In this document: in pieces, positions 36,051 to 46,507 of the stretch
Numbering within the stretch: the first letter of the stretch is position 1
How the letters are laid out: every line of letters begins with the position of its first letter
From: Candidatus Poribacteria bacterium
GTDB lineage: Bacteria; Poribacteria; WGA-4E; WGA-3G
Direction: 5' to 3'
Length of the DNA: 64,000 nt
Assembly: GCA_963665235.2 (NCBI GenBank)
Contig: CAXXLX010000001.1
Location: 1,024,001 to 1,088,000 of the forward strand
Notes under the pieces: generated by a model
The model's input: the letters and a program-made list of their open reading frames with translations, nothing else
The model's database searches: none
Told to the model about the DNA's origin: nothing
Position numbers and translations under genes: made by a program

Positions 36051-37637
36051 TTATACGGTTTGCAAGTTGCTTATAGAAAGCAACCAGGGTTCATCTACCA
36101 AAGCACGCAGAAAAATCCCGCGTGCGCCGTTCAAATCTCTGTCCATCTTGAGTCCTGTGCTATCTTTGATAACTTTAGCACCACCTAAGTTTTTGACAAT
36201 CTCACCTGTCCACGACACGGTTTTTGATGTGTATGCTTCGTTAACATCTACCACGATACATCCAGTTTCTTTCGCTTTATGCTTTAGAAACTGTTTAAAA
36301 CGGTAATGGGAGAGGGTCAACATTTGGCGGACGGTTTTCTTATGGAGTTTGCGTCCACTTTTACAAGTCTTATGAGAAGTCTCAAAAGTGGGGAGCAAGA
36401 TAATATCAAAGTTGTCGACAAGCCACCGTGCAACTTTCTTATGAAGTTCATCCACAAGGTTTCTAATCCGTTTTCTGATACGATTTGCGGCACGTCTCAT
36501 GTTCTTCTTTGCCTGTTGCTTAGTTGCTTTAGTCGCACGGGAGAGTAGGTCGTCAAGATATGAACAAAGTCTTTGAATACGATTGATTGCATGGTGTCCG
36601 AGCCATCCGAACCCATGTTCATGAAAATATGTCAGGAATGTCCTAACACCGGGGTCAAGTGCGACGACACGTCCGTTTGGTTTTCGCTTTCGTATCGTCA
36701 CACTATAACTGACACACAAATAATAGTGTGCGCCATCTTTGACCAAGCGGGAGTCTTTGATGTTTTCAGGGAGACGCTCACTCAGTCTAAGTTTTCCTAA
36801 TTTTGTGTGATAGACACCCTTTTCAGATATGGCAGCTTTGGGTATAAAGATGCTATCTGAAGGGGTTCGTTTAGATTTAAAAGAAACAGATTGAAACTGT
36901 CCTGTTTTCTGACATTTCTGCTTCGCTGCGCGAACGGCAAGACAAGCATCCCGAATAGCAACTGACTTAATTTGATATGGAACAGGTTTAGCCCAATCGG
37001 GTAAATCGTCAAGGATACCTGTCTTAATCGCTATCCAGTTCGCTTGTGTGTCCGTGTCATTCAACAAAGCAACCGTTTTGTTGTAGGTCCAACGTGCTGT
37101 GCCTATCCATTGACGCAGCGTCTCACGTTGTTCGGTTGTTGGATAAACTCTTATCTTCTTTGATTTGGTCACGGTAACTGCGGAGGCCGTGTAGTCTGCG
37201 ACTGAAGACGTGCAGGATGGCGAGAAGATCCGACGTGAGTTCTTCTTGTGGACTGTGTTCTGTTTGGTCAAGAACCACGAGTTCGCCACCGTTTTGTTCA
37301 ACGAGGTATCGTATAAGGTCGATACCGAAACGGGCGAGTCTGTCCCGATGGGCAATAACAACTTCGAGCTTATCACCTTGCATAAGCCTGTCCAATAAGG
37401 TTCTAAACCCTTTTCTTTTGAAGTTAAGGCCACTTCCGATGTCTCTGATGATTTCTGCTTCGGGGTAGATACTTCGCATATATGCGACTTGTCGTTCAAG
37501 GTCATCTCTTTGCTTGGTGCTTGACACCCGGCAATAGCAAACAGTGGTAACTGATTTGGATTTGCTTTTGATGTATCCATCAACATCGTAGCGTCTATGC
37601 CCGCCTCCTGTGCGGATAATATCAATCTTTCCTTCAT
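36051..37637 (-). CDS. tnpB: IS607 TnpB (pro-Fanzor type) with N-terminal extension overlapping tnpA
   Basis: ALDPG, ILLP, EAYTSKT and DRDLNGA; GGAG-8 nt-ATG at 37637. Confidence 0.9.
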   Translation of the reverse strand: MKERLILSAQEAGIDATMLMDTSKANPNQLPLFAIAGCQAPSKEMTLNDKSHICEVSTPKQKSSETSEVALTSKEKGLEPYWTGLCKVISSKLLLPIGTDSPVSVSTLYDTSLNKTVANSWFLTKQNTVHKKNSRRIFSPSCTSSVADYTASAVTVTKSKKIRVYPTTEQRETLRQWIGTARWTYNKTVALLNDTDTQANWIAIKTGILDDLPDWAKPVPYQIKSVAIRDACLAVRAAKQKCQKTGQFQSVSFKSKRTPSDSIFIPKAAISEKGVYHTKLGKLRLSERLPENIKDSRLVKDGAHYYLCVSYSVTIRKRKPNGRVVALDPGVRTFLTYFHEHGFGWLGHHAINRIQRLCSYLDDLLSRATKATKQQAKKNMRRAANRIRKRIRNLVDELHKKVARWLVDNFDIILLPTFETSHKTCKSGRKLHKKTVRQMLTLSHYRFKQFLKHKAKETGCIVVDVNEAYTSKTVSWTGEIVKNLGGAKVIKDSTGLKMDRDLNGARGIFLRALVDEPWLLSISNLQTV

Positions 37638-37710
37638 TTGCTAATCTCCGTAAGTGGTCTGGGGTGTAATCCAATAGTTTGCTTGCTTTCTTTGCGGATA
37701 CATAAGTCAT
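37123..37710 (-). CDS. tnpA: IS607 TnpA serine recombinase (intact, 195 aa)
   Basis: HTH...TGGGHRRY, YCRVSS, QRDDLERQ, DIGSGLNFKRKG, HRDRLARFG and EELTSDLLAILHVFS. Confidence 0.93.
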   Translation of the reverse strand: MTYVSAKKASKLLDYTPDHLRRLANEGKIDIIRTGGGHRRYDVDGYIKSKSKSVTTVCYCRVSSTKQRDDLERQVAYMRSIYPEAEIIRDIGSGLNFKRKGFRTLLDRLMQGDKLEVVIAHRDRLARFGIDLIRYLVEQNGGELVVLDQTEHSPQEELTSDLLAILHVFSRRLHGLRSYRDQIKEDKSLSNNRTT

Positions 37711-37716
37711 GTATAT

Positions 37717-37745
37717 ATTATAACACATTTTTACCGAAATGTCAA
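37717..37745 (-). promoter_or_regulatory. IS607 left-end promoter (probably leaderless tnpA mRNA)
   Basis: TTGACA-17 bp-TATAAT then 6 nt to the ATG; equivalent boxes in the other three copies. Confidence 0.8.
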
Positions 37746-37785
37746 GAAAAACATAGATTTTTTGCTACTGTTAATCAACCTCGCG

Positions 37786-38727
37786 CTAACCAAAACTTTC
37801 CCCAGTTTTGACGTGATATCCGTTAATAAAATCGCCTATTTCCATAACTTTTTTTGTAGCAGGTTGAACCTGTAAGAGTTGGAGTAAACCTTCCCCAGTA
37901 GCAACAAGCAGCTCTCGCTGCGGTGTAATTTTCAATGTCCCGGGGGCCCCTGTGAAGTCTGTTCCCTGTGGATACGGTATACTTCGGATAATTTTGAGCG
38001 GGCGGTCGTCTCGAAAAAAGGTGTAAGCCCCTGGCCACATAGCAGTGCCTCGGATGAGATTGTGAATCGCGGTTGCCGAATCATCCCAATTGATACGTCC
38101 GGTCTCCTTTGTCAGACGCGGGGCATGGGTCGCCTCGGCGTGATTTTGGGGTGTTGCAGATGGGGGGGCACCGGGCGGTAAGTCTGATAACAGTGCCGCC
38201 AATTGACGTGCACCGATGCATGCAAGTTTGTCCATCAACGTCTCCACTGTTTCTGCAGCACAAATCGGAAACCGTTCTGCACAGATAATATCGCCTGTAT
38301 CCTCACCCGCATCTAGTAGCATCAGCGTTACACCGGTTTCTGTTTCACCGTTAATCAGTGCCCACTGAACCGGGGCTGCGCCCCGGTACTTCGGCAACAA
38401 CGATGGATGTAGGTTGATAGTCCCGCATGGCGGTATATCCAAAACAGCTTGCGGGAGAATCTGACCGAAGGCAGCGACAACAGTCACATCCGGTGCAAGC
38501 TGTTTAAGGGTGTTTATGAAATCGGGCTGTCTCACCTTTTCCGGTTGATACACCGGCAAATTGTGTTCCGTAGCGACCCTTTTCACGGCCGATGGGGTTA
38601 AACGTTTTCCGCGTCCCTTCGGCCGGTCCGGTTGCGTGACAACCCCGATAATTTCAAACTTATTAGAGATAAGTCCTGTTAGCGCGGGGACAGCAAATTC
38701 GCTAGTGCCCATAAAAAGAATTCGCAC
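37786..38727 (-). CDS. fmt: Methionyl-tRNA formyltransferase
   Basis: ILFMGTSEFA, VTQPDRP.GRG, NLHPSLLPKYRGAAP and DTGDII. Confidence 0.97.
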   Translation of the reverse strand: MRILFMGTSEFAVPALTGLISNKFEIIGVVTQPDRPKGRGKRLTPSAVKRVATEHNLPVYQPEKVRQPDFINTLKQLAPDVTVVAAFGQILPQAVLDIPPCGTINLHPSLLPKYRGAAPVQWALINGETETGVTLMLLDAGEDTGDIICAERFPICAAETVETLMDKLACIGARQLAALLSDLPPGAPPSATPQNHAEATHAPRLTKETGRINWDDSATAIHNLIRGTAMWPGAYTFFRDDRPLKIIRSIPYPQGTDFTGAPGTLKITPQRELLVATGEGLLQLLQVQPATKKVMEIGDFINGYHVKTGESFG

Positions 38728-38739
38728 AATACGCCCCCA

Positions 38740-39363
38740 TCAGAATCGAAGCTGTAGTAAGGATATAGTGAGAAATTCAGAATCTTCACTGTAGCAATTC
38801 ATAGATGTTTCCAAAGACCGCCTACCGATGCTTTCCGATAACCGGCTGCCGATAGCCATTTGCTGTCGCAGGCTTGCGATGCTCCCATCAGATTCCCCAT
38901 CCCCTTTATCCGGCGGTGCTGCAGGGGGGCGCGTCGGCACACGGGATGCTGTCCTATCTTTATTGCGCGTATTTAACCAATCCCACACTCCGATTATAAG
39001 AGCTAGCGAAACTGCCCCAATCCCAATTCTTCTATAATCCTTCGGGTATAATACCGGGGAAATTTTATTTTCCCGAATCATCTTCACTCCCCGAACAGCG
39101 AAATAGCTATGAACTGCAGCAAAGGGGAACGAGCTTAATGTAATAATCTCAAACCGGCGTAACGCGCTTTCGCTATATTCTTCCTCCGCTTGTTCCGCTT
39201 GTTCTGCTGGCGGGGTCATCTCCGTTTGTGCTTTAGCGATTTGTGGCATTATGGCGAAAATAAAAAGTCCAGCGAACACGGCAAACCAATAATAGGCATT
39301 CGCCGAATGACGTTCTCTGCCTCCCCCGCCGCCTGCGGGAGAGTTATACCGAATTTTGTTCAC
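38740..39363 (-). CDS. Hypothetical membrane protein
   Basis: 207-aa ORF filling the lspA-fmt gap on the operon strand; two to three hydrophobic segments. Confidence 0.6.
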   Translation of the reverse strand: MNKIRYNSPAGGGGGRERHSANAYYWFAVFAGLFIFAIMPQIAKAQTEMTPPAEQAEQAEEEYSESALRRFEIITLSSFPFAAVHSYFAVRGVKMIRENKISPVLYPKDYRRIGIGAVSLALIIGVWDWLNTRNKDRTASRVPTRPPAAPPDKGDGESDGSIASLRQQMAIGSRLSESIGRRSLETSMNCYSEDSEFLTISLLQLRF

Positions 39364-39374
39364 AATTTACGCTC

Positions 39375-39920
39375 CTATACGGCAGTATTGCTCTGATTAC
39401 GGTATCGAAAAAGGTAAAAAATCAGCATACCCGCCCCGATACATACAGACACATCCGCAACATTAAAAGTAGGCCAAAATAGATGCTTGCTCTCTATACC
39501 AAACTGAAGAAAATCGATGACACGGCCCAAGTAGAGTCGGTCGATGAAATTGCCAACAGCACCGCCGAGTAGAAAACCGAGAGCAATTCGCATCCATCGA
39601 CTGTGTCGGAATTGGAAGTAATAGATGAAAATGAAAACTAACGCCACAATTGTAACACCGATAAGTAGAGCACGTTGGCCTGATAATATACCGAAGGCAG
39701 CACCTGTGTTTGTATCATGCCGCAGATTGAAAAAACCTGGAATAACCGAATAACCTGTTCCCCAGGGGATATAATGTTGAACAAGCCATTTGGTAATTCT
39801 ATCAAGGAGTAAGGTCGGAATAGCCACAGCTAACAACGGCAGAACCGACTTGATATAATAAAATATCGACAACCTACCAGCAGCACTGCTATCAGGATTA
39901 GGTTTTTGATTTGTACGCAT
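39375..39920 (-). CDS. lspA: Lipoprotein signal peptidase II
   Basis: DRITK, NTGAAFG, GGAVGNFIDR, VIDF and FNVAD. Confidence 0.95.
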   Translation of the reverse strand: MRTNQKPNPDSSAAGRLSIFYYIKSVLPLLAVAIPTLLLDRITKWLVQHYIPWGTGYSVIPGFFNLRHDTNTGAAFGILSGQRALLIGVTIVALVFIFIYYFQFRHSRWMRIALGFLLGGAVGNFIDRLYLGRVIDFLQFGIESKHLFWPTFNVADVSVCIGAGMLIFYLFRYRNQSNTAV

Positions 39921-42543
39921 TCTTAAGGGCCTTCCATTCCGATTTTGCGTCATCCTGTTCAGGGACGCTTGGTAATTGGTTCCGGGTACTCAGAAAAACG
40001 CTAACGGGGGTTTTACCCATCTCATGATGAATCTCCTCCGCCAAAAAAGGAAGCAACGGCGCAAAACATTGAAGAAGAACGGAGCATATTGCCTCAAACG
40101 CTATCTTCGCCGAGGTGAAACGCTCATCCGCACCATCAATTTGACATAAACTGATATAGCACTGGAAATCGGCACGACAGAAGTCGAATAAGCAGGTCCA
40201 CATGCTGTAGAAATCGTTCTCCCGATAAGCCAATTCAAAATCAGCTAAAAGTTCCTTCGTCGCCAACACTGCAAGAGTGTCCGGGGATAGCAGTGTAGTA
40301 GCCGAACTTTTATCAGTAGCACCGGAGCTGGTCTCATCCCGAAAATGTACATATACCTGCGCCGCTTCTTGTAATATTCGTTTCAACTGGGTATATTTGC
40401 GCTTGTATCTCTTTGCTAGGGTCTCAAGTTGCGCAGCACCATCCGCCTTAGCTCTGACCTTATGTAAATCGGGAGCAATTGCAATAAGTCTCAGAACATC
40501 GGCCGGGTATTTCTGAAGCATCGCGTCCGGTATCTCCATCCGCCAAACTTTTTCCGGAATGTTTTTGAGTTGTAAACGTTTAAACGGATGGCACTCTTTA
40601 ATAGGCCGACTCAGTCGGAGTGTTGCAGCCAGAACGTTCAACTCCCCTAACCATTTCAGAAACGGACGACGGGGGGCGAAAACGACACTCACAGCAGATT
40701 CAACGGAGCCCTTCTTGAAATCCGAGCTATACAGAGCTTGAAGAAGATTCACAAAATAGTTATCGATATGGGTCAACTCTTTACGGAAATCCTTCGCATG
40801 ACAGTTCGAACAGGACGTATCTGTAGGCAATAATTCCTCAACACTCAAGCGGAACCAGTGTTCGGTGCCACCACGAATTGCACTCCGCACAACGCGGAGA
40901 ACGTTTTTATCCAAGATAGGAACGTTGCAATGGTCACAGCGCAGAATCGGCAGTGGAATCCCCCACCGACGTTGCGATGACACCCGCATATCCGCAACCT
41001 TCATCATCTCTTTACGGATAGAACCCCCAAGCCGCTTGTTATAGTTGTTCCAATACTCCTTGGAATTGTTGAGCTCCTCCGTTATACTACTACCGGTAAT
41101 AGCGAAGCACCAATGTTGATACGGACGGAAAACTGATGGACTGTTACAGTGTTCGCAACACAACTGTGTCTCTTTTCGCATGCGCGCTTTTATCAAATAC
41201 TCCCGATTTTCTAATTCACTGCGGATGAACTCCTCCGCATTAAACAGATTTAGACCACACAACGAATCGGCATCCTCAGTAAATCTACCCGTCTCATCAA
41301 AGATAGGCGTTATCTGTGTAGCAGCATCGAATTGAAGAGGCACCCCAGCACCTCCTGTTCCGGGAACCTTCGAAGGAGGCTTACCCTCCTGGCCAGGTCC
41401 AGATAATGCATGGATAATGCTGTAACTCAGCGGATGATGTGCCGGATTCAAATGGATGACACTTGCCGCTAATTCTGTCCCATCGAAGGAATTTGAAATC
41501 CGATCGAACACTGCTTCAGGAATTACGAAAAACGGAAGCTCCGTTAGTGAGAAAAGAGGATGTGACACAGTGTGTTCTATCAGCTGAGCCGTTTTCAATT
41601 TGGCGATGGGTATGGGATAATCGTCCCGCGTCGCGTTCGGGTTTTCAAACATTTTTAACTGCGGCTCAGCGAAAATCAGATAATCGCTCTTAAACTCCAT
41701 AAGCCAATAGTTAACCTCTTCGCGAATGCCTAAGGCAATTGTACCGGCTATCTCCCAGAGCTGCGATATCGGAAGAAGCATCGCAAAAAAAACATTCACA
41801 CCGAATTCTTCGAAACCGGTATTGAAGGGAAACTTGATGTATGTATGTGAGGTATCTGTCGGAACCTGTGTAACGGTTTTGCCGAGCTCTAACGGTGTGG
41901 TGCATTTTGGGCACCAATGGCTCAGTTGCGGTTCATCGAGTAGGTATTCTAAATCTCGCAATCTATCTAGAACGCTAAAAAGTTTAGTGTCATAGCGCGC
42001 CTCTAATGTTCTGTCGGTGGAGCTCCAGTCAGCAAAAATGCCGAGGGATTCCAACTTCTGCCGCTGCTCTTTCAAGAGCTCGCTATAGACTTGATGGCAC
42101 TGTTTTCTAAAACCGAGCAGATTCTCCGAGTACCCAGAGGGATTCTTCTGGACAACCCCTGCCTCAATACTAAGCGGATAGGTTTCCCAAAGCGGTGAAT
42201 AGGCAATATCCTTCCCACGCATCATCTCATATTTGAGAAAAATATCCTGATAAATTTTTTGCCGAAGTGTCTCAACAGTCAACACATGCACAGGGGTCGG
42301 CTTTTCGCGAATCACATACGCGGGAATGCCATCCGTTTTGTCCGGAAATACGTAGACATTCTCCGCTGACCATAAGCTAAGCGTTACAGCCTCGCGCGAT
42401 TTTTCCGCTGTAGGTACAAGCTTCCGCGCGCGAGTCGGCCTGTTCTCAATCGGCACCGATGCCTTCGGTTTTCTACCCCGTTTCCCGGAAGATGTCTTCG
42501 CCGAAGCGGATTTTGAAAATGCTTTTGTTTTTGTGATACTCAC
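39898..42543 (-). CDS. Degenerate isoleucyl-tRNA synthetase-like protein lacking HIGH and KMSKS (probable pseudoenzyme)
   Basis: Colinear IleRS scaffold (KIYQDIFLKY, LGIFADW, WCPKCTTPL, SSQRRWGIPLP, YPADVLRL, APLLPFLAEEI) in the ileS-lspA position; catalytic motifs altered. Confidence 0.8.
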   Translation of the reverse strand: MSITKTKAFSKSASAKTSSGKRGRKPKASVPIENRPTRARKLVPTAEKSREAVTLSLWSAENVYVFPDKTDGIPAYVIREKPTPVHVLTVETLRQKIYQDIFLKYEMMRGKDIAYSPLWETYPLSIEAGVVQKNPSGYSENLLGFRKQCHQVYSELLKEQRQKLESLGIFADWSSTDRTLEARYDTKLFSVLDRLRDLEYLLDEPQLSHWCPKCTTPLELGKTVTQVPTDTSHTYIKFPFNTGFEEFGVNVFFAMLLPISQLWEIAGTIALGIREEVNYWLMEFKSDYLIFAEPQLKMFENPNATRDDYPIPIAKLKTAQLIEHTVSHPLFSLTELPFFVIPEAVFDRISNSFDGTELAASVIHLNPAHHPLSYSIIHALSGPGQEGKPPSKVPGTGGAGVPLQFDAATQITPIFDETGRFTEDADSLCGLNLFNAEEFIRSELENREYLIKARMRKETQLCCEHCNSPSVFRPYQHWCFAITGSSITEELNNSKEYWNNYNKRLGGSIRKEMMKVADMRVSSQRRWGIPLPILRCDHCNVPILDKNVLRVVRSAIRGGTEHWFRLSVEELLPTDTSCSNCHAKDFRKELTHIDNYFVNLLQALYSSDFKKGSVESAVSVVFAPRRPFLKWLGELNVLAATLRLSRPIKECHPFKRLQLKNIPEKVWRMEIPDAMLQKYPADVLRLIAIAPDLHKVRAKADGAAQLETLAKRYKRKYTQLKRILQEAAQVYVHFRDETSSGATDKSSATTLLSPDTLAVLATKELLADFELAYRENDFYSMWTCLFDFCRADFQCYISLCQIDGADERFTSAKIAFEAICSVLLQCFAPLLPFLAEEIHHEMGKTPVSVFLSTRNQLPSVPEQDDAKSEWKALKNAYKSKT

Positions 42544-43932
42544 TACGGCTGAAGCCGTGTGCTTCTTTTAGCACATCGACCCTCCTATGTGATTCCTGCT
42601 TCCGCGTCTCGTGCCTCCTTCTGAAAAACAGAAGTGGGTTGAGGTCTTACTTGCGCTCCACAGGCGTTTAGGCTCTCGGTATATCCTACCGCGAGGTTTC
42701 TCAAGTTGATTGCAGCGTTCAGGTCTCTATCTGCTCTATATTGGCAGACACTGCAATGATAAGTTCTATCGGATAATGTTAAATCTGTTTTCTTATGGCC
42801 GCAGCTGCTGCAAGTTTTACTGGATGCAAAGAACTGGCAGGCTTCGGTTACAGGGATACCGCGTGCCTCGGCTTTCGTCTTTAGCAACAATAGGAACCCG
42901 CCTAAGGCACTATCACTCAACGCCTTAGCAAGTTTGCTATTCTTTAGCAAGTTAGACACTTTTAGCGTCTCAATAACAATGCCTGACGCACGATTGACAA
43001 TATCCGTGCTTGCTTTCTGATGTGCATCGCAGCGAATAGAGGTAACTTTATAGTGGATACGCTCAACGACGCGCTTCTGCTTGAACCAGTTTTTAGACTG
43101 CGGCACTTGACGGCTCAACTTCCGTTGGGCACGGGCTAACTTTCGCTCATAGCGTTTCAAAGGCCTCGGGTTCTCATATCGCGTCCCATCACTGCACGTC
43201 GCTAAGGTATTAATACCGACATCTATACCGATTATGGGGTGCGTTGATACATCAACAGCTTCGGTGTCCTCCACTTCAACGGTGATAGATACGAACCAAC
43301 GATGCGCCGTGCGACTTATGGTCACTTTTATGATTTTGCCTACGAAACGCAACTCTTCAAATGTCTTTACCCAACCTATTTTGGGTAACCTAATCCGTTT
43401 GCCTTCCACTCTCACGGAGTGGGCAGCTGTCGTGTAGGATTGACGACTGCCACGCTTTTTGAAACGCGGAAAGCCTGAACCGTTATCAGTCCAATTCTTG
43501 ATGGCAGTCCCTAAATTGTCGATACCATATAGAGCCGCACGCTGATCTTGCGCTGAGGTCCAATCATACTCTCGCTTTTTCTCATTGAAACGATTGTTTA
43601 GCGTGAAAGTAGATAAGAAGGTATCCTCAGCTAAATTCGCTTTAAAATCAGTCAGACCCATATTGTAGGCAAAACGGGCATAACCGCATTGCGCGCTAAA
43701 CCAACGCCGCTGCTTAAAAGTCGGAGCTAAGGCAATCTTATGGGTTTTGTATGGCATCGTCTGAACTCCTGTTAGGTTGCTGACTCGCCTCGGTGAAGGC
43801 GGAGACAGAGTAACCGCTCCGCCGCTGAGGCAGTCCTATAAGTACACCACAGGGATATATCCCATGTCAACTATTTTAGCTGCTGCTGCACGAGACACAC
43901 GGGTCGGACCCAACGCTAAAGCATTGGGATTG
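42533..43932 (-). mobile_element. IS200/IS605-family solo-tnpB element (IS1341-like)
   Basis: Left hairpin cccaatgc-ttta-gcgttggg after TTAA; right hairpin acggc-ttca-gccgt ending in TCAC; no tnpA. Confidence 0.8.
42585..43757 (-). CDS. tnpB: IS200/IS605 TnpB RNA-guided nuclease
   Basis: ARFAYN, IRLPKIGWV, GIDVG, VIETL, SSKTCSSCG...CSVC and DRDLNAAINL; AGGAG RBS. Confidence 0.93.
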   Translation of the reverse strand: MPYKTHKIALAPTFKQRRWFSAQCGYARFAYNMGLTDFKANLAEDTFLSTFTLNNRFNEKKREYDWTSAQDQRAALYGIDNLGTAIKNWTDNGSGFPRFKKRGSRQSYTTAAHSVRVEGKRIRLPKIGWVKTFEELRFVGKIIKVTISRTAHRWFVSITVEVEDTEAVDVSTHPIIGIDVGINTLATCSDGTRYENPRPLKRYERKLARAQRKLSRQVPQSKNWFKQKRVVERIHYKVTSIRCDAHQKASTDIVNRASGIVIETLKVSNLLKNSKLAKALSDSALGGFLLLLKTKAEARGIPVTEACQFFASSKTCSSCGHKKTDLTLSDRTYHCSVCQYRADRDLNAAINLRNLAVGYTESLNACGAQVRPQPTSVFQKEARDAEAGIT

Positions 43933-43954
43933 TTAAGCAAGACCCTTCATGTCT

Positions 43955-44233
43955 TTAAGGTGAAGGTGTAGGATGCAACAATGTATTCAGAATGTGTAAC
44001 AGCACAAGTAATACAATAGGTGAAACGTCAATGCCAAAATTCCGGGTTAACGGTCCAAGCACTTGGCGAATCGGTTGTAGAACCGGGTCGACCATTTGAC
44101 TCGTCGCATGAAAAATTCTACGCACGGCTAAATTCCGAGTCCCAAACACAAACCAAGAGAGAACCGCATTTACAATAACGATTATCATATAAACTTCAAG
44201 CAAGTGACTGAGAACCCTAGCGAGCATGTTCAT
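43955..44233 (-). CDS. yggT: YggT family membrane protein
   Basis: LSWF, DPVLQPIR and IDVSPI; follows proC. Confidence 0.88.
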   Translation of the reverse strand: MNMLARVLSHLLEVYMIIVIVNAVLSWFVFGTRNLAVRRIFHATSQMVDPVLQPIRQVLGPLTRNFGIDVSPIVLLVLLHILNTLLHPTPSP

Positions 44234-45066
44234 AGTGGTACGTTCCCTTCCTCTTTTGTGATCCCAAGTTGTTTCGCTCGTTCAGTCGCCGCAAGAATAG
44301 CCTCAGTGACTGTAGCCCGAAAGCGACCCTGTTCCAGAGCATAGAGACCCGCTGCAGTTGTACCACCGGGGGTAGTAACACGATTTTTTAATACCACTGG
44401 ATGCTCCTGTGTCTCCGCTAGCAACGTTGCAGCACCTAACACCGTATGCGTCGCAAGCGTTTGGGCATCTTGCCGAGGCAGCCCCACCTGAACCCCCGCA
44501 TCCGCTAAAGCCTCAATAAAAAGGGCAACGTAGGCAGGACCGCTACCGCTCATCCCTGTGACAGCGTTCAGATGCCGTTCCTCCATGATTAACGACGTAC
44601 CACATGCATCGAAAATTTTCTGTGCTGTGGCGAGATGGTCCGCACCCGCTGCGCTGCCCCCTGTTAGCACCGATATTGCTGCCCCTACCGATGCAGCAAT
44701 ATTTGGCATCACCCGAACAATCGCACACGGAACCTCAAAGTAAGACTCCAAGGACGTTGTCGTAACACCCGCTGCGATGCTAATCATCCATTGCGGAGAG
44801 GTTAAACTTCGGGCAATCTGTGGCAGAATGTGTGGCACCGCTACAGGCGGCACAGCACACAGAATAATATCTGTCGTCTCCACAAGCTCCGTAATATCTG
44901 CCGCACCGTTGACCTGCCTCTCATCGCAGAGTTTTGTTACGAGAGTCGTATCTAGGTCGGTAATCCAAATTTGCTGTGCTGGCAAAAGCCGGTCCGTAAT
45001 ACTTCTCACGATGATACCGCCCATTTTCCCAACACCTATGACCCCCAACCGCATGTTTTCAATCAT
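44230..45066 (-). CDS. proC: Pyrroline-5-carboxylate reductase
   Basis: IGVGKMG, ISIAAG, RVMPN, SGSGPAY and VTTPGGTT. Confidence 0.95.
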   Translation of the reverse strand: MIENMRLGVIGVGKMGGIIVRSITDRLLPAQQIWITDLDTTLVTKLCDERQVNGAADITELVETTDIILCAVPPVAVPHILPQIARSLTSPQWMISIAAGVTTTSLESYFEVPCAIVRVMPNIAASVGAAISVLTGGSAAGADHLATAQKIFDACGTSLIMEERHLNAVTGMSGSGPAYVALFIEALADAGVQVGLPRQDAQTLATHTVLGAATLLAETQEHPVVLKNRVTTPGGTTAAGLYALEQGRFRATVTEAILAATERAKQLGITKEEGNVPL

Positions 45067-45284
45067 TTTTTCCCTTGTTTCCACTTAGCCCAATATGGAC
45101 AAAATGTTGGCTATTAGGTTTATGCCTGTTAGCAAGAAGTCTCCGACGCGCGTCAAAAACATCATTAGAATAACAAACTCTTGCCAATTGCTAATCGCCA
45201 ATCGCTAATCGCTAATTTATGATACCGCCCATTTTCCCAACACCTATGACCCCCAACCGCATGTTTTCAATCATTTTTTCCCTT
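45011..45284. repeat. 66-bp direct repeat (45011-45076 and 45219-45284) flanking a 142-bp dispersed repeat
   Basis: atgataccgcccattttcc...aatcattttttccctt occurs twice; the middle segment matches the repeat at 16217-16303. Confidence 0.88.
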
Positions 45285-46001
45285 TCCGAAAATTGCCCGC
45301 CCGATTCTAACTACATTCGCACCCTCTTCAATTGCAACCTCAAAATCGTTTGTCATGCCCATAGAGAGATACGGTAACGTGATTCCGGGAAATTGTTCCG
45401 CCTTCACCTGCTCAGCAAGTGTTCGCAACAACGCGAAAGCCGGACGGTTATCCGCAGCAGACTCACTTAACCGTCCCATCGTCATTAACCCAACGATACG
45501 TACCGCGGGATACGCCAGCGATTTCTCCATGAAGTCAAAGAGACACTCTGAAGACAAACCGTGTTTAGTAGCCTCGCCAGTTGTGTTTACCTGAATTAGG
45601 ACATCTGTTTTCTGGCCCCGCGCCTCCGACCTGCGTGCTATCTCGGCTAAGAGCCTCACGCTTTCCACCGAATGAATCAGCCCGAACATGCCGAGTGCCG
45701 ATTTCACTTTATTTCTTTGCAAATGCCCGATGAGATGCCACCTACACCCTATCACAGAGGTCGCCGCACGCACCTCTTCATATTTTTGCTGCGCCTCCTG
45801 CACCCGATTCTCACCTATATCCGTGACACCCGCAGCAAGAGCCGCCTCAATTTCTGATACCGAGCGTCCTTTAGTGACAGCAACAAGCCGTACCGAATCC
45901 GGTGTTCGACCGCTCCGTTGCGCAGCTGCTCTTATACGGTCCATGACATTATAAAGGTTGTCGGCTATCTGAGCGTCCACATTTTCCTCCAGAGCAAACA
46001 T
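45267..46001 (-). CDS. yggS: PLP homeostasis protein YggS
   Basis: LVAVTK, GENRVQE, WHLIGHLQRNK, GLMTM, LSMGMTND and VRIGRAIFG. Confidence 0.95.
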   Translation of the reverse strand: MFALEENVDAQIADNLYNVMDRIRAAAQRSGRTPDSVRLVAVTKGRSVSEIEAALAAGVTDIGENRVQEAQQKYEEVRAATSVIGCRWHLIGHLQRNKVKSALGMFGLIHSVESVRLLAEIARRSEARGQKTDVLIQVNTTGEATKHGLSSECLFDFMEKSLAYPAVRIVGLMTMGRLSESAADNRPAFALLRTLAEQVKAEQFPGITLPYLSMGMTNDFEVAIEEGANVVRIGRAIFGKGKND

Positions 46002-46025
46002 TGAGCGACCTCAAGTACTATCTTT

Positions 46026-46397
46026 CTACTTAGACCGTGTAATGAATCCGACATCTTCATCCCAGTCAGGGTCTTCATCTTCGAAAGATTCTATGTCAAT
46101 GCGCCCCTTAACAAAACCATCTGGCACAATAATGCTTATAGGTCTGCTGCTGCAAAACAGTATACCGATAACGGCTAGTGCCACCGCACAACTTACAATA
46201 CCGATACCGACCATAACAATATGCGTCGCCTCCGTGTAAACTTGCGTGACCTGGACCGCACTTACCGATTCCTGTGACAAAAGATCCGGGTATTTTTTAT
46301 CAGGATAGTTGTAGCCCCGGCGGATAAAACGGAGACCAATGATACCCGTAACAACCGAGGATATTCCAAATATTGCACGTACTAGAAAGTTAAGCAT
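46026..46397 (-). CDS. Hypothetical two-TM protein with acidic C-terminus
   Basis: ORF directly upstream of yggS; two hydrophobic helices; start uncertain. Confidence 0.55.
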   Translation of the reverse strand: MLNFLVRAIFGISSVVTGIIGLRFIRRGYNYPDKKYPDLLSQESVSAVQVTQVYTEATHIVMVGIGIVSCAVALAVIGILFCSSRPISIIVPDGFVKGRIDIESFEDEDPDWDEDVGFITRSK

Positions 46398-46507
46398 CTT
46401 CTTTAGTGTCCAATTTTTAATTCGCAATTAAGATTGCAAGCCAACCGACTCAGGTACTTAATGATACCACCTTTTTTTTTCACAATGCAAATTTATTTTA
46501 CCACGCC

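Follow-up and report, generated by a model that had tools for sequence, protein, structure and literature searches.

The 64,000-nucleotide window analyzed here, positions 1,024,001 to 1,088,000 of contig CAXXLX010000001.1 of a Candidatus Poribacteria bacterium (assembly GCA_963665235.2), carries a strongly diverged paralog of isoleucyl-tRNA synthetase (IleRS) directly upstream of lspA. This paralog is probably a selected, non-charging relic (pseudoenzyme) of the ancestral type 1 enzyme, IleRS1, kept at the ileS-lspA position, while a type 2 enzyme, IleRS2, charges tRNA-Ile.

The open reading frame (ORF) of the paralog, at 39898..42543 on the minus strand of the window, is uninterrupted and has 881 codons as listed (P0001); the gene callers' version (P0002) starts at a GTG at residue V30 and has 852 amino acids. 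The product matched Pfam tRNA-synt_1 (72.5 bits) and Anticodon_1 (32.3 bits) and scored 172.1 bits against the NCBIfam ileS model TIGR00392 (147 bits in the genome scan), below the curated cutoff of 621.4. Judged by these matches, it is an IleRS homologue of full length which lies far under the family level, and the uninterrupted 881-codon ORF with IleRS homology described in the original prediction, made from the letters of the window, was thus recovered. The ileS-lspA placement given there also held, since the downstream ORF (39375..39953, minus strand) was identified as lspA, the signal peptidase II gene (Peptidase_A8, 141 bits). Its 5′ end shares 56 nt with the 3′ end of the paralog in the ORFs as listed, the lspA start being provisional. 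NCBIfam has no model for the paralog family, whose proteins are named “class I tRNA ligase family protein”, “hypothetical protein”, “isoleucyl-tRNA synthetase” or “isoleucine--tRNA ligase” in their sources; the last two names, used by several sources, are misleading labels of which users of these annotations should be warned.

Motifs were checked in residue-level alignments to the IleRS1 of Priestia megaterium (PmIleRS1; 8c9e/8c9f, phmmer) and to the genome's own IleRS2, and were counted in an alignment of 85 family members. HMGH is replaced by TVET (residues 89-92, 42268..42279), GWDTHGLPIE by LWETYPLSIE, the editing motif TTTPWT by ISQLWE (HLWE or SQLWE in the family), G.VH.AP.HG..DY by SVIHLNPAHHPLSY and EGSDQYRGWF by FAPRRPFLKWL, the ribose/ATP-binding EGxDQ segment differing between family members in both sequence and length. 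Both alignments therefore reproduced the replacements of the HIGH, GWDCHGLPIE, editing and EGSDQ motifs that had been noticed earlier. The KMSKS loop had been described as deleted; in the phmmer alignment to IleRS1 it is present at nearly full length and substituted, with NIPEK in place of KMSKS (residues 661-665, 40549..40563). Neither HxGH nor a KMSKS-like motif was found in any member (0/85 each). An invariant Ser (S373) stands at the position of the editing Asp, and the position of the editing His is Pro in most members, both roles being those which we take from the IleRS editing literature. The ARD1 motif LSNWYVRRSRDRFW of IleRS2, which holds S713 and R721 of the P. megaterium enzyme (PmIleRS2), reads FQCY-ISLCQIDGA in the paralog, in a low-identity alignment where the residue mapping is approximate; the R721A substitution in PmIleRS2 abolishes charging. 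The paralog terminates directly past ARD1, and the wobble-reading ARD2/Zn-finger module is gone in families f1, f3 and f4 and retained in the copy of genome G002 (family f8).

Other parts of the protein have been conserved. The four CxxC pairs pointed out in the original prediction, C211/C214, C463/C466, C536/C539 and C578/C581, align with the four pairs of the genome's IleRS2, and all eight putative Zn-ligand Cys are invariant in the 85 members. The first two pairs (41902..41913 and 41146..41157) make up the first Zn module. About 100 residues are invariant across the 85 sequences. In the old active-site region these include new invariants, R79-E80 (within REMPT in 54 of the 85) and Q99, which stand beside the retained P82, D100, W119, E120, E127, W527 and W631; the acidic E80, D100, E120 and E127 align to canonical D, D, D and E. 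The basic N-terminal tail, also announced beforehand, is a family trait. This K/R/S-rich segment, residues 1-45 in the window protein (42409..42543) and predicted to be disordered, has a median of 34 amino acids with 29% K+R and 25% S+T, and occurs in f1 only.

A working IleRS, which the original prediction had expected elsewhere in the genome, was found on the contig that holds the window, at a distance of about 0.95 Mb (G000:C1:115489-118023). It is the sole ileS gene above the cutoff (951.6 bits) and encodes a protein of 1056 amino acids with GVHH, GWDTHGLP, WTTTPWT and KMSKS. With 1030-1040 bits to PmIleRS2 versus 328-336 to PmIleRS1, it is of type 2; no lspA lies beside its gene. Enzymes of the IleRS2 type (1045-1173 amino acids) were present in all ten sampled genomes of the phylum. 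The presence of this second, above-cutoff enzyme rules out the paralog as the sole IleRS. That the paralog is itself a working IleRS with non-canonical motifs is scarcely credible. Natural HIGH variants of IleRS2 such as [A/G]xHH do exist, according to the available parts of two reports (bioRxiv 10.1101/2023.01.31.526100; 10.64898/2026.02.03.703510), but the paralog has lost all signature motifs together, among them the two His of HIGH, the two Lys of KMSKS, GxDQ and the Arg of ARD1; at 172 bits it falls well short of the ileS cutoff of 621, and a bona fide IleRS2 is at hand.

The IleRS2 enzymes of the phylum show some variation of their own. The HIGH position reads GVHH in the window genome, G015 and G046, and TIAH in G002 and G004; in the portions available of the same two reports, the [A/G]xHH variant is linked to mupirocin hyper-resistance (bioRxiv 10.1101/2023.01.31.526100; 10.64898/2026.02.03.703510). 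The IleRS2 of families f2 and f3 (L043, L054 and L055, from G015, G010 and G003) have 1128-1173 amino acids. They carry about 45 inserted residues behind the first Rossmann half, their motifs are altered (GFDCQGLW, FRNWF, AMHKS), and the ileS model matches them as two pieces of 548-559 and 125-132 bits.

An AlphaFold model built from the 85-sequence family alignment was confident (predicted local distance difference test, pLDDT, 83.1; predicted template modelling score, pTM, 0.83) and disordered only at residues 1-39, where pLDDT is below 50, 385-401 and 741-748. The structural comparison suggested with the original prediction gave IleRS1 as best match in the PDB (Foldseek, 8c9f, E 2.5e-33; 8c9e, E 1.2e-32), over 872-877 columns at 17-18% identity, followed by IleRS2, then ValRS, then LeuRS. 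A search of the ESM Atlas with the paralog returned generic class I synthetase clusters only (scores 0.92-0.94). The class Ia fold with both Zn modules of the CP insertions is thus predicted to be kept. The anticodon-binding helices, which had been described as remaining, do so as a fold in the model; their reading motif is replaced and the C-terminal wobble-reading domains are absent.

Selection was estimated as the ratio of non-synonymous to synonymous substitution rates (dN/dS), by the Nei-Gojobori method (NG86), from 29 loci of genus g2, the pairs being binned by the dS of the paralog. For dS of 0.1-0.3 (20 paralog pairs) the median dN/dS was 0.21 for the paralog, 0.18 for lspA and 0.15 for proC; the corresponding values were 0.165, 0.13 and 0.12 for dS of 0.3-0.7 (16 pairs), and 0.171, 0.11 and 0.09 for dS of 0.7-1.2 (53 pairs). 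Four very close pairs (dS<0.1) gave a noisy 0.43, and the paralog ranged overall from 0.14 to 0.27 over 89 pairs. In the same 10 genome pairs, the ratio was about 0.05 for IleRS2 versus 0.15-0.27 for the paralog. The paralog is clearly under purifying selection, relaxed about 4-5-fold relative to the essential IleRS2 and similar to that on ordinary neighbours. Each of the 35 orthologues extracted has an ORF of full length (791-946 amino acids), three “stops inside” flags of the genome scans being natural terminal stops. Fragmented orthologues with dN/dS near 1, which would have spoken against the selected pseudoenzyme of the original prediction, were not what we observed: full-length orthologues (35/35) and a dN/dS of 0.165-0.21 support it. 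A decaying pseudogene is ruled out by the dN/dS values together with the intact ORFs.

The constraint is unevenly distributed, as seen in regional dN/dS values from the 89 pairs: 0.15 in the Rossmann N-half, 0.17 in CP1, 0.12 in the Rossmann C-half with CP2/3, 0.17 in the KMSKS loop and SC-fold, 0.29 in the anticodon-binding domain and 0.35 at the C-terminus. Residues 81-210 gave 0.09-0.16. The most constrained segment, residues 521-610 (40714..40983), inside the Rossmann C-half with CP2/3, has a dN/dS of about 0.04 and dense invariant columns; it contains WGxPLP, the second Zn module (C536/C539 and C578/C581) and an FRKE..ID block. The old catalytic core and the Zn modules are therefore the most constrained parts of the paralog. 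This distribution also bears on the idea of a slowly decaying relic kept in cis for the expression of the overlapping, essential lspA. The 56-nt overlap of the listed ORFs and the conserved arrangement would fit it, as would an evolution about 6-fold faster than that of IleRS2 and the loss of the gene in some lineages. A cis constraint, however, would not yield a dN/dS of 0.15-0.25 over 880 codons, 0.04 far from lspA and some 100 invariant residues, and lineages lacking the paralog express lspA straight after yggT, which makes such a relic very unlikely.

The paralog is widespread in the phylum. A word-indexed search recovered 127 relatives, of which the 120 listed span 36-100% identity and are nearly all full length; where an organism is named for these, it is Candidatus Poribacteria. 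Of the 151 phylum genomes scanned, 136 gave a match (E<=1e-20), among them all 99 of the window's own family. Representative copies form a graded series of scores against the ileS model: 445 bits in G002 (f8, 943 amino acids), 276 in G015 (f3, 791 amino acids), 234 in G053 (f4, 805 amino acids stop to stop, a figure of 871 counting past the stop), 226 in G008 (f5, 890 amino acids) and 164 in G050 (f1, 946 amino acids). HIGH and KMSKS are missing from all seven copies aligned with three IleRS2, that of G002 included. The G002 copy, the least diverged, aligns end-to-end with PmIleRS1 at 459 bits versus 174 to PmIleRS2, and keeps an N-terminal TLNLP, a TPWT remnant and a C-terminal CxxC...CxxC Zn finger (CERC...CHKC). 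The C-terminal Zn-binding domain is described as exclusive to IleRS1 in the accessible part of bioRxiv 10.64898/2026.02.03.703510; it is present in this basal copy and absent from the window protein.

In a FastTree phylogeny (LG+gamma) of 128 sequences, comprising exhaustive phmmer representatives and locus-derived proteins and rooted on IleRS2, the Poribacteria-type copies formed one clade of 23 tips nested among IleRS1, with a Shimodaira-Hasegawa-like (SH-like) support of 0.934, or 1.0 without two basal tips; its exact sister group is uncertain, the branches being long and long-branch effects possible. Every tip of this clade is motif-less. The gene order yggS-proC-yggT-X-lspA-hyp207-fmt, where X is the paralog and hyp207 encodes a 207-amino-acid protein, is conserved, with lspA 3′ of X in 33 of 35 loci, the deepest lineages included; in G046 and G004, too, lspA is immediately preceded by a diverged copy. 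Because ileS-lspA is the classical bacterial arrangement and X sits at this conserved locus, X is most simply a vertically inherited IleRS1 which has been displaced functionally by IleRS2.

The following course of events would account for these data. The ancestral bacterial-type IleRS1 of the phylum would have stayed at the ileS-lspA site while an enzyme of the IleRS2 type took over the charging of tRNA-Ile. In the IleRS1 copy, HIGH, KMSKS and GxDQ, which serve class I adenylation, disappeared before the lineages sampled here split. The motifs for editing and for reading the anticodon went later, as did the C-terminal ARD2/Zn-finger module in the window's family. A folded, full-length protein with both Zn modules has nevertheless been kept by purifying selection. 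An editing-only intermediate stage is conceivable in this history from the motifs of the older branches, which keep parts of the editing site: TPWT in G002, and APGH.PDDY or APGH.PDHY in G015 and G053. By the same token one might think of a free-standing trans-editing factor, whose CP1 would still deacylate mischarged tRNA-Ile. For the window protein and its family this is extremely unlikely, with ISQLWE or HLWE in place of the editing motif, the invariant S373 at the essential Asp and mostly Pro at the His, and we ruled it out there on these lost motifs.

The window copy has itself recently been hit by a mobile element. A TnpB-only IS200/IS605-type element of 1413 bp (42533..43945, minus strand) lies between the listed ORF and the upstream yggT-like gene (43955..44233, minus strand), a conserved neighbour. 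Its ORF (42585-43757, minus strand) matches Pfam OrfB_IS605 and Cas12f1-like_TNB, and TnpB is all that it carries. The genome contains another end-to-end copy at C1:2459112-2460547, with 93.7% identity, in addition to four partial ones. No inverted repeats were found for the inserted element at a distance of up to 60 nt; in the terminator scan, a 6-bp hairpin at 42544-42559 adjoins its end. RNA-library contigs (runs X2 and X3) join 42532 to 43946 and leave out exactly these 1413 nt, so that the closely related strain which they represent is without the element. Across the joint, the minus strand reads the yggT stop TAA, AGAC, then ATG AAA AAA ACA AAA GCA TTT. Because the resulting M-K-K-T-K-A-F is in frame with the paralog ORF and fits the family consensus MKKxNS..K, the native start is the ATG at 43948..43950 (minus strand), 4 nt past the yggT stop, and the insertion point of the element falls within codon 2. 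The GTG listed as the start (42543) is within the element end, to which the first 11 nt of the listed ORF (42533-42543) belong. As the element separates the ORF from its native start, the protein of the window copy may have a changed or shorter tail, or be poorly translated; the rest of its ORF is intact.

Contigs of three metatranscriptome runs (X1-X3, one study) match the operon at 95-100% and cover the paralog in part. The X1 contig (771 nt, 39315-40085) bridges lspA and the paralog, and those of X2 and X3 bridge yggT and the paralog. Third codon positions account for 3 of the 4 listed strain differences in the paralog and 13 of the 14 in lspA. These contigs hint that the paralog is transcribed. 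Promoter-like sites (10 versus 6.4 +/- 2.7 in shuffles) and terminator-like sites (4 versus 4.6 +/- 2.5) between 39200 and 44400 were uninformative, and Rfam gave no match in 37000-46500.

Several points weigh against a selected, non-charging relic. The dead status of the protein is read from its motifs. The paralog was not found in 14 of the 151 genomes, and family f2 and genus g8 have lost it cleanly: in the matchless G001 and G010 (f2) and G003 (g8), yggT adjoins lspA with only 170-555 nt between them. Since two lineages have excised the gene in this way, it is dispensable. Between the window genome and genus g2, identity is 89-90% for IleRS2 and 53-54% for the paralog, with a dN about 6-fold higher for the latter. 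NG86 is approximate, the pairs used for dN/dS have a shared history and hence lack independence, and the two loci of a genome pair differ in dS. The RNA evidence consists of assembled contigs of one study, in which DNA carry-over is possible and uncovered stretches of the operon are uninformative, and from which no expression levels can be read. On the subject of dS, in pairs of genus g2 (L012 and L015-L018 versus L068-L072) that of the paralog locus was 0.08-0.42, 2-6 times below the 0.45-0.80 of the IleRS2 locus, a gap which suggests recombination or separate histories of the two loci.

Since the adenylation, editing and anticodon motifs are lost but the fold is kept under selection, we regard the paralog as a pseudoenzyme, presumably unable to form Ile-AMP or Ile-tRNA, which would act by binding. 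Selection has kept the gene intact across the phylum after the loss of its catalytic motifs, and it has therefore probably acquired a new role. The binding surface would be formed by the remodelled old catalytic core and the CP/Zn modules, because constraint is strongest in these parts, which also contain the new invariants R79, E80 and Q99. Tentatively, and with somewhat more doubt than confidence, we propose that the partner is RNA, either a tRNA, contacted at its acceptor arm, or a different structured RNA, for which the lineage-specific, disordered K/R/S-rich tail would add non-specific affinity. Four observations speak against an RNA partner: the basic tail is absent from older branches of the clade; it is the least constrained part of the protein (dN/dS 0.45); the anticodon motif and the wobble-reading domains have been lost; and the median isoelectric point (pI) without the tail is 5.96 in the family versus 6.64 in 31 canonical IleRS. 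Anticodon-specific recognition of tRNA-Ile appears unlikely, and a binder of that kind was rejected on the lost motif and domains; a globally basic RNA-binding body was likewise rejected on the body pI of 5.96.

The same constrained core could instead reflect a neo-functionalised pocket, the old synthetic site having been remodelled to bind another small ligand. The protein could then have a new enzymatic activity, or it could sense a metabolite such as isoleucine or a hydrophobic compound akin to it. Constraint is indeed strongest in the old active-site region (dN/dS 0.09-0.16 for residues 81-210 and 0.04 for 521-610), P82, W527 and W631 and the acidic E80, D100, E120 and E127 are invariant at canonical pocket positions, and the R79-E80 motif is new. 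The P, W, W and D concerned are presumably residues of the Ile pocket, an assignment which we take from the Thermus thermophilus IleRS literature. Conservation of the core is also typical of ordinary IleRS, however, so that the pattern may be purely structural; moreover, the EGxDQ segment varies, and the neighbourhood consists of housekeeping genes which suggest no ligand or pathway. We consider this explanation unlikely, although not negligible. Somewhat less probable still is the more specific proposal that a rebuilt pocket (R79-E80-x-P82, Q99-D100, W119-E120, W527 and W631), in a protein with both Zn modules intact, either catalyses a new reaction or senses or sequesters, as a decoy, molecules that resemble isoleucine. 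Natural inhibitors of IleRS1 of the mupirocin/thiomarinol type are a candidate ligand class for it, which would fit the working IleRS2 of the phylum with its GVHH, a variant reported to confer mupirocin hyper-resistance.

The retained fold and the dense invariant patches in the Zn module would equally suit a protein-binding scaffold or regulator, in which the IleRS-shaped body modulates, for instance, IleRS2, a translation factor or a protein of envelope biogenesis. Non-catalytic paralogs of aminoacyl-tRNA synthetases (aaRS) that act via protein partners are known, HisZ being an example in the available text of PMC9437257. No protein partner is indicated here, though, and the ileS-lspA context is ancestral and hence without functional signal; we therefore hold this possibility to be decidedly improbable.

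The neighbourhood of the paralog offered further observations. The 207-amino-acid protein (38740-39363 of the window, minus strand) is encoded directly downstream of lspA across the phylum, with 41-69% identity and a dN/dS of about 0.2, and has no Pfam or PADLOC match. The PADLOC scan, run on this neighbour and the paralog, returned no family and hence no anti-phage defence match for either. Another mobile unit (36051-37728, minus strand) follows immediately downstream of fmt. As read from the translations, it comprises a 528-amino-acid ORF with a TnpB-like C-terminus and an overlapping ORF of 201 amino acids which looks like a serine-recombinase/MerR-type IS607 TnpA.

Outside the Poribacteria clade, about 20 IleRS1-like representative clusters also lacked HIGH and/or KMSKS in the alignment (P0143, P0147, P0148, P0152-P0154, P0156, P0162, P0167, P0168, P0172, P0175, P0178, P0180, P0182, P0207, P0241, P0242, P0247 and P0264). 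Those with a name are metagenome-assembled genomes of Armatimonadota (P0152 and P0182), Candidatus Wallbacteria (P0156) and Bacillota (P0147). Sixteen of these outsiders, together with P0202, P0224 and P0250, fell into one 19-tip clade whose support is weak (SH-like 0.54). Displaced IleRS1 copies may repeatedly follow such a path; if the motif-less copies of Armatimonadota, Wallbacteria and Bacillota had come to do what is proposed above for the rebuilt pocket, displaced synthetases would share a recurrent fate.

A full-text literature search found no description of the family, supplements being outside its scope, including the IleRS phylogeny datasets of bioRxiv 10.64898/2026.02.03.703510. 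In the accessible part of that report, the HIGH motif of type 1 IleRS is treated as nearly invariant, and it is asked why IleRS1 persists beside IleRS2 (bioRxiv 10.64898/2026.02.03.703510). The paralog is a natural counter-example, a phylum-wide displaced IleRS1 without catalytic signatures which is nevertheless folded according to its model, with putative Zn binding, under selection and at the ancestral locus. It offers a tractable case of an essential enzyme turning into a pseudoenzyme after xenologous displacement: the graded series of scores to the ileS model (445, 276, 234, 226 and about 170 bits) lets the loss of each module be ordered, and the lineages which deleted the gene are clean natural knock-outs.

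Taking all this into account, the paralog is probably a new case of a known kind, the aaRS-derived pseudoenzymes. With the IleRS1 of P. megaterium (8C9E/8C9F) it shares the fold and domain order over about 870 columns, the position upstream of lspA and its phylogenetic nesting, and a basal member of the family has the IleRS1-specific C-terminal Zn finger. It differs from it by an identity of only 17-18%, the replacement of all signature motifs, the missing ARD2 and Zn-binding domain and the added basic tail. HisZ, a class II protein truncated to the catalytic domain whose partner is HisG, has been kept by selection for a binding or regulatory role. Like the paralog, it is derived from an aaRS, and it does not aminoacylate, as stated in the available part of PMC9437257, a trait proposed for the paralog as well; the paralog, in contrast, has a full-length class Ia body. 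SbzA, an IleRS-like aminoacyl-tRNA-dependent transferase of Streptomyces, resembles the proposed recruitment of the paralog in having a non-translational role beside a housekeeping IleRS, but the portion of PMC12945691 at hand describes a canonical architecture, weak aminoacylation and a biosynthetic gene cluster, whereas the paralog has no intact motifs and lies in a housekeeping operon. By analogy, the closest functional counterpart would be LeuRS-I of Sulfolobaceae, which in the accessible text of PMC9437257 is likewise a full-length class Ia protein beside a working enzyme, non-charging, with disrupted editing and a divergent C-terminus. LeuRS-I still makes leucyl-adenylate and binds tRNA-Leu according to the same text (PMC9437257), whereas the paralog is without adenylation and anticodon-reading motifs, and LeuRS-I is a duplicate where the paralog is a displaced ancestral gene.

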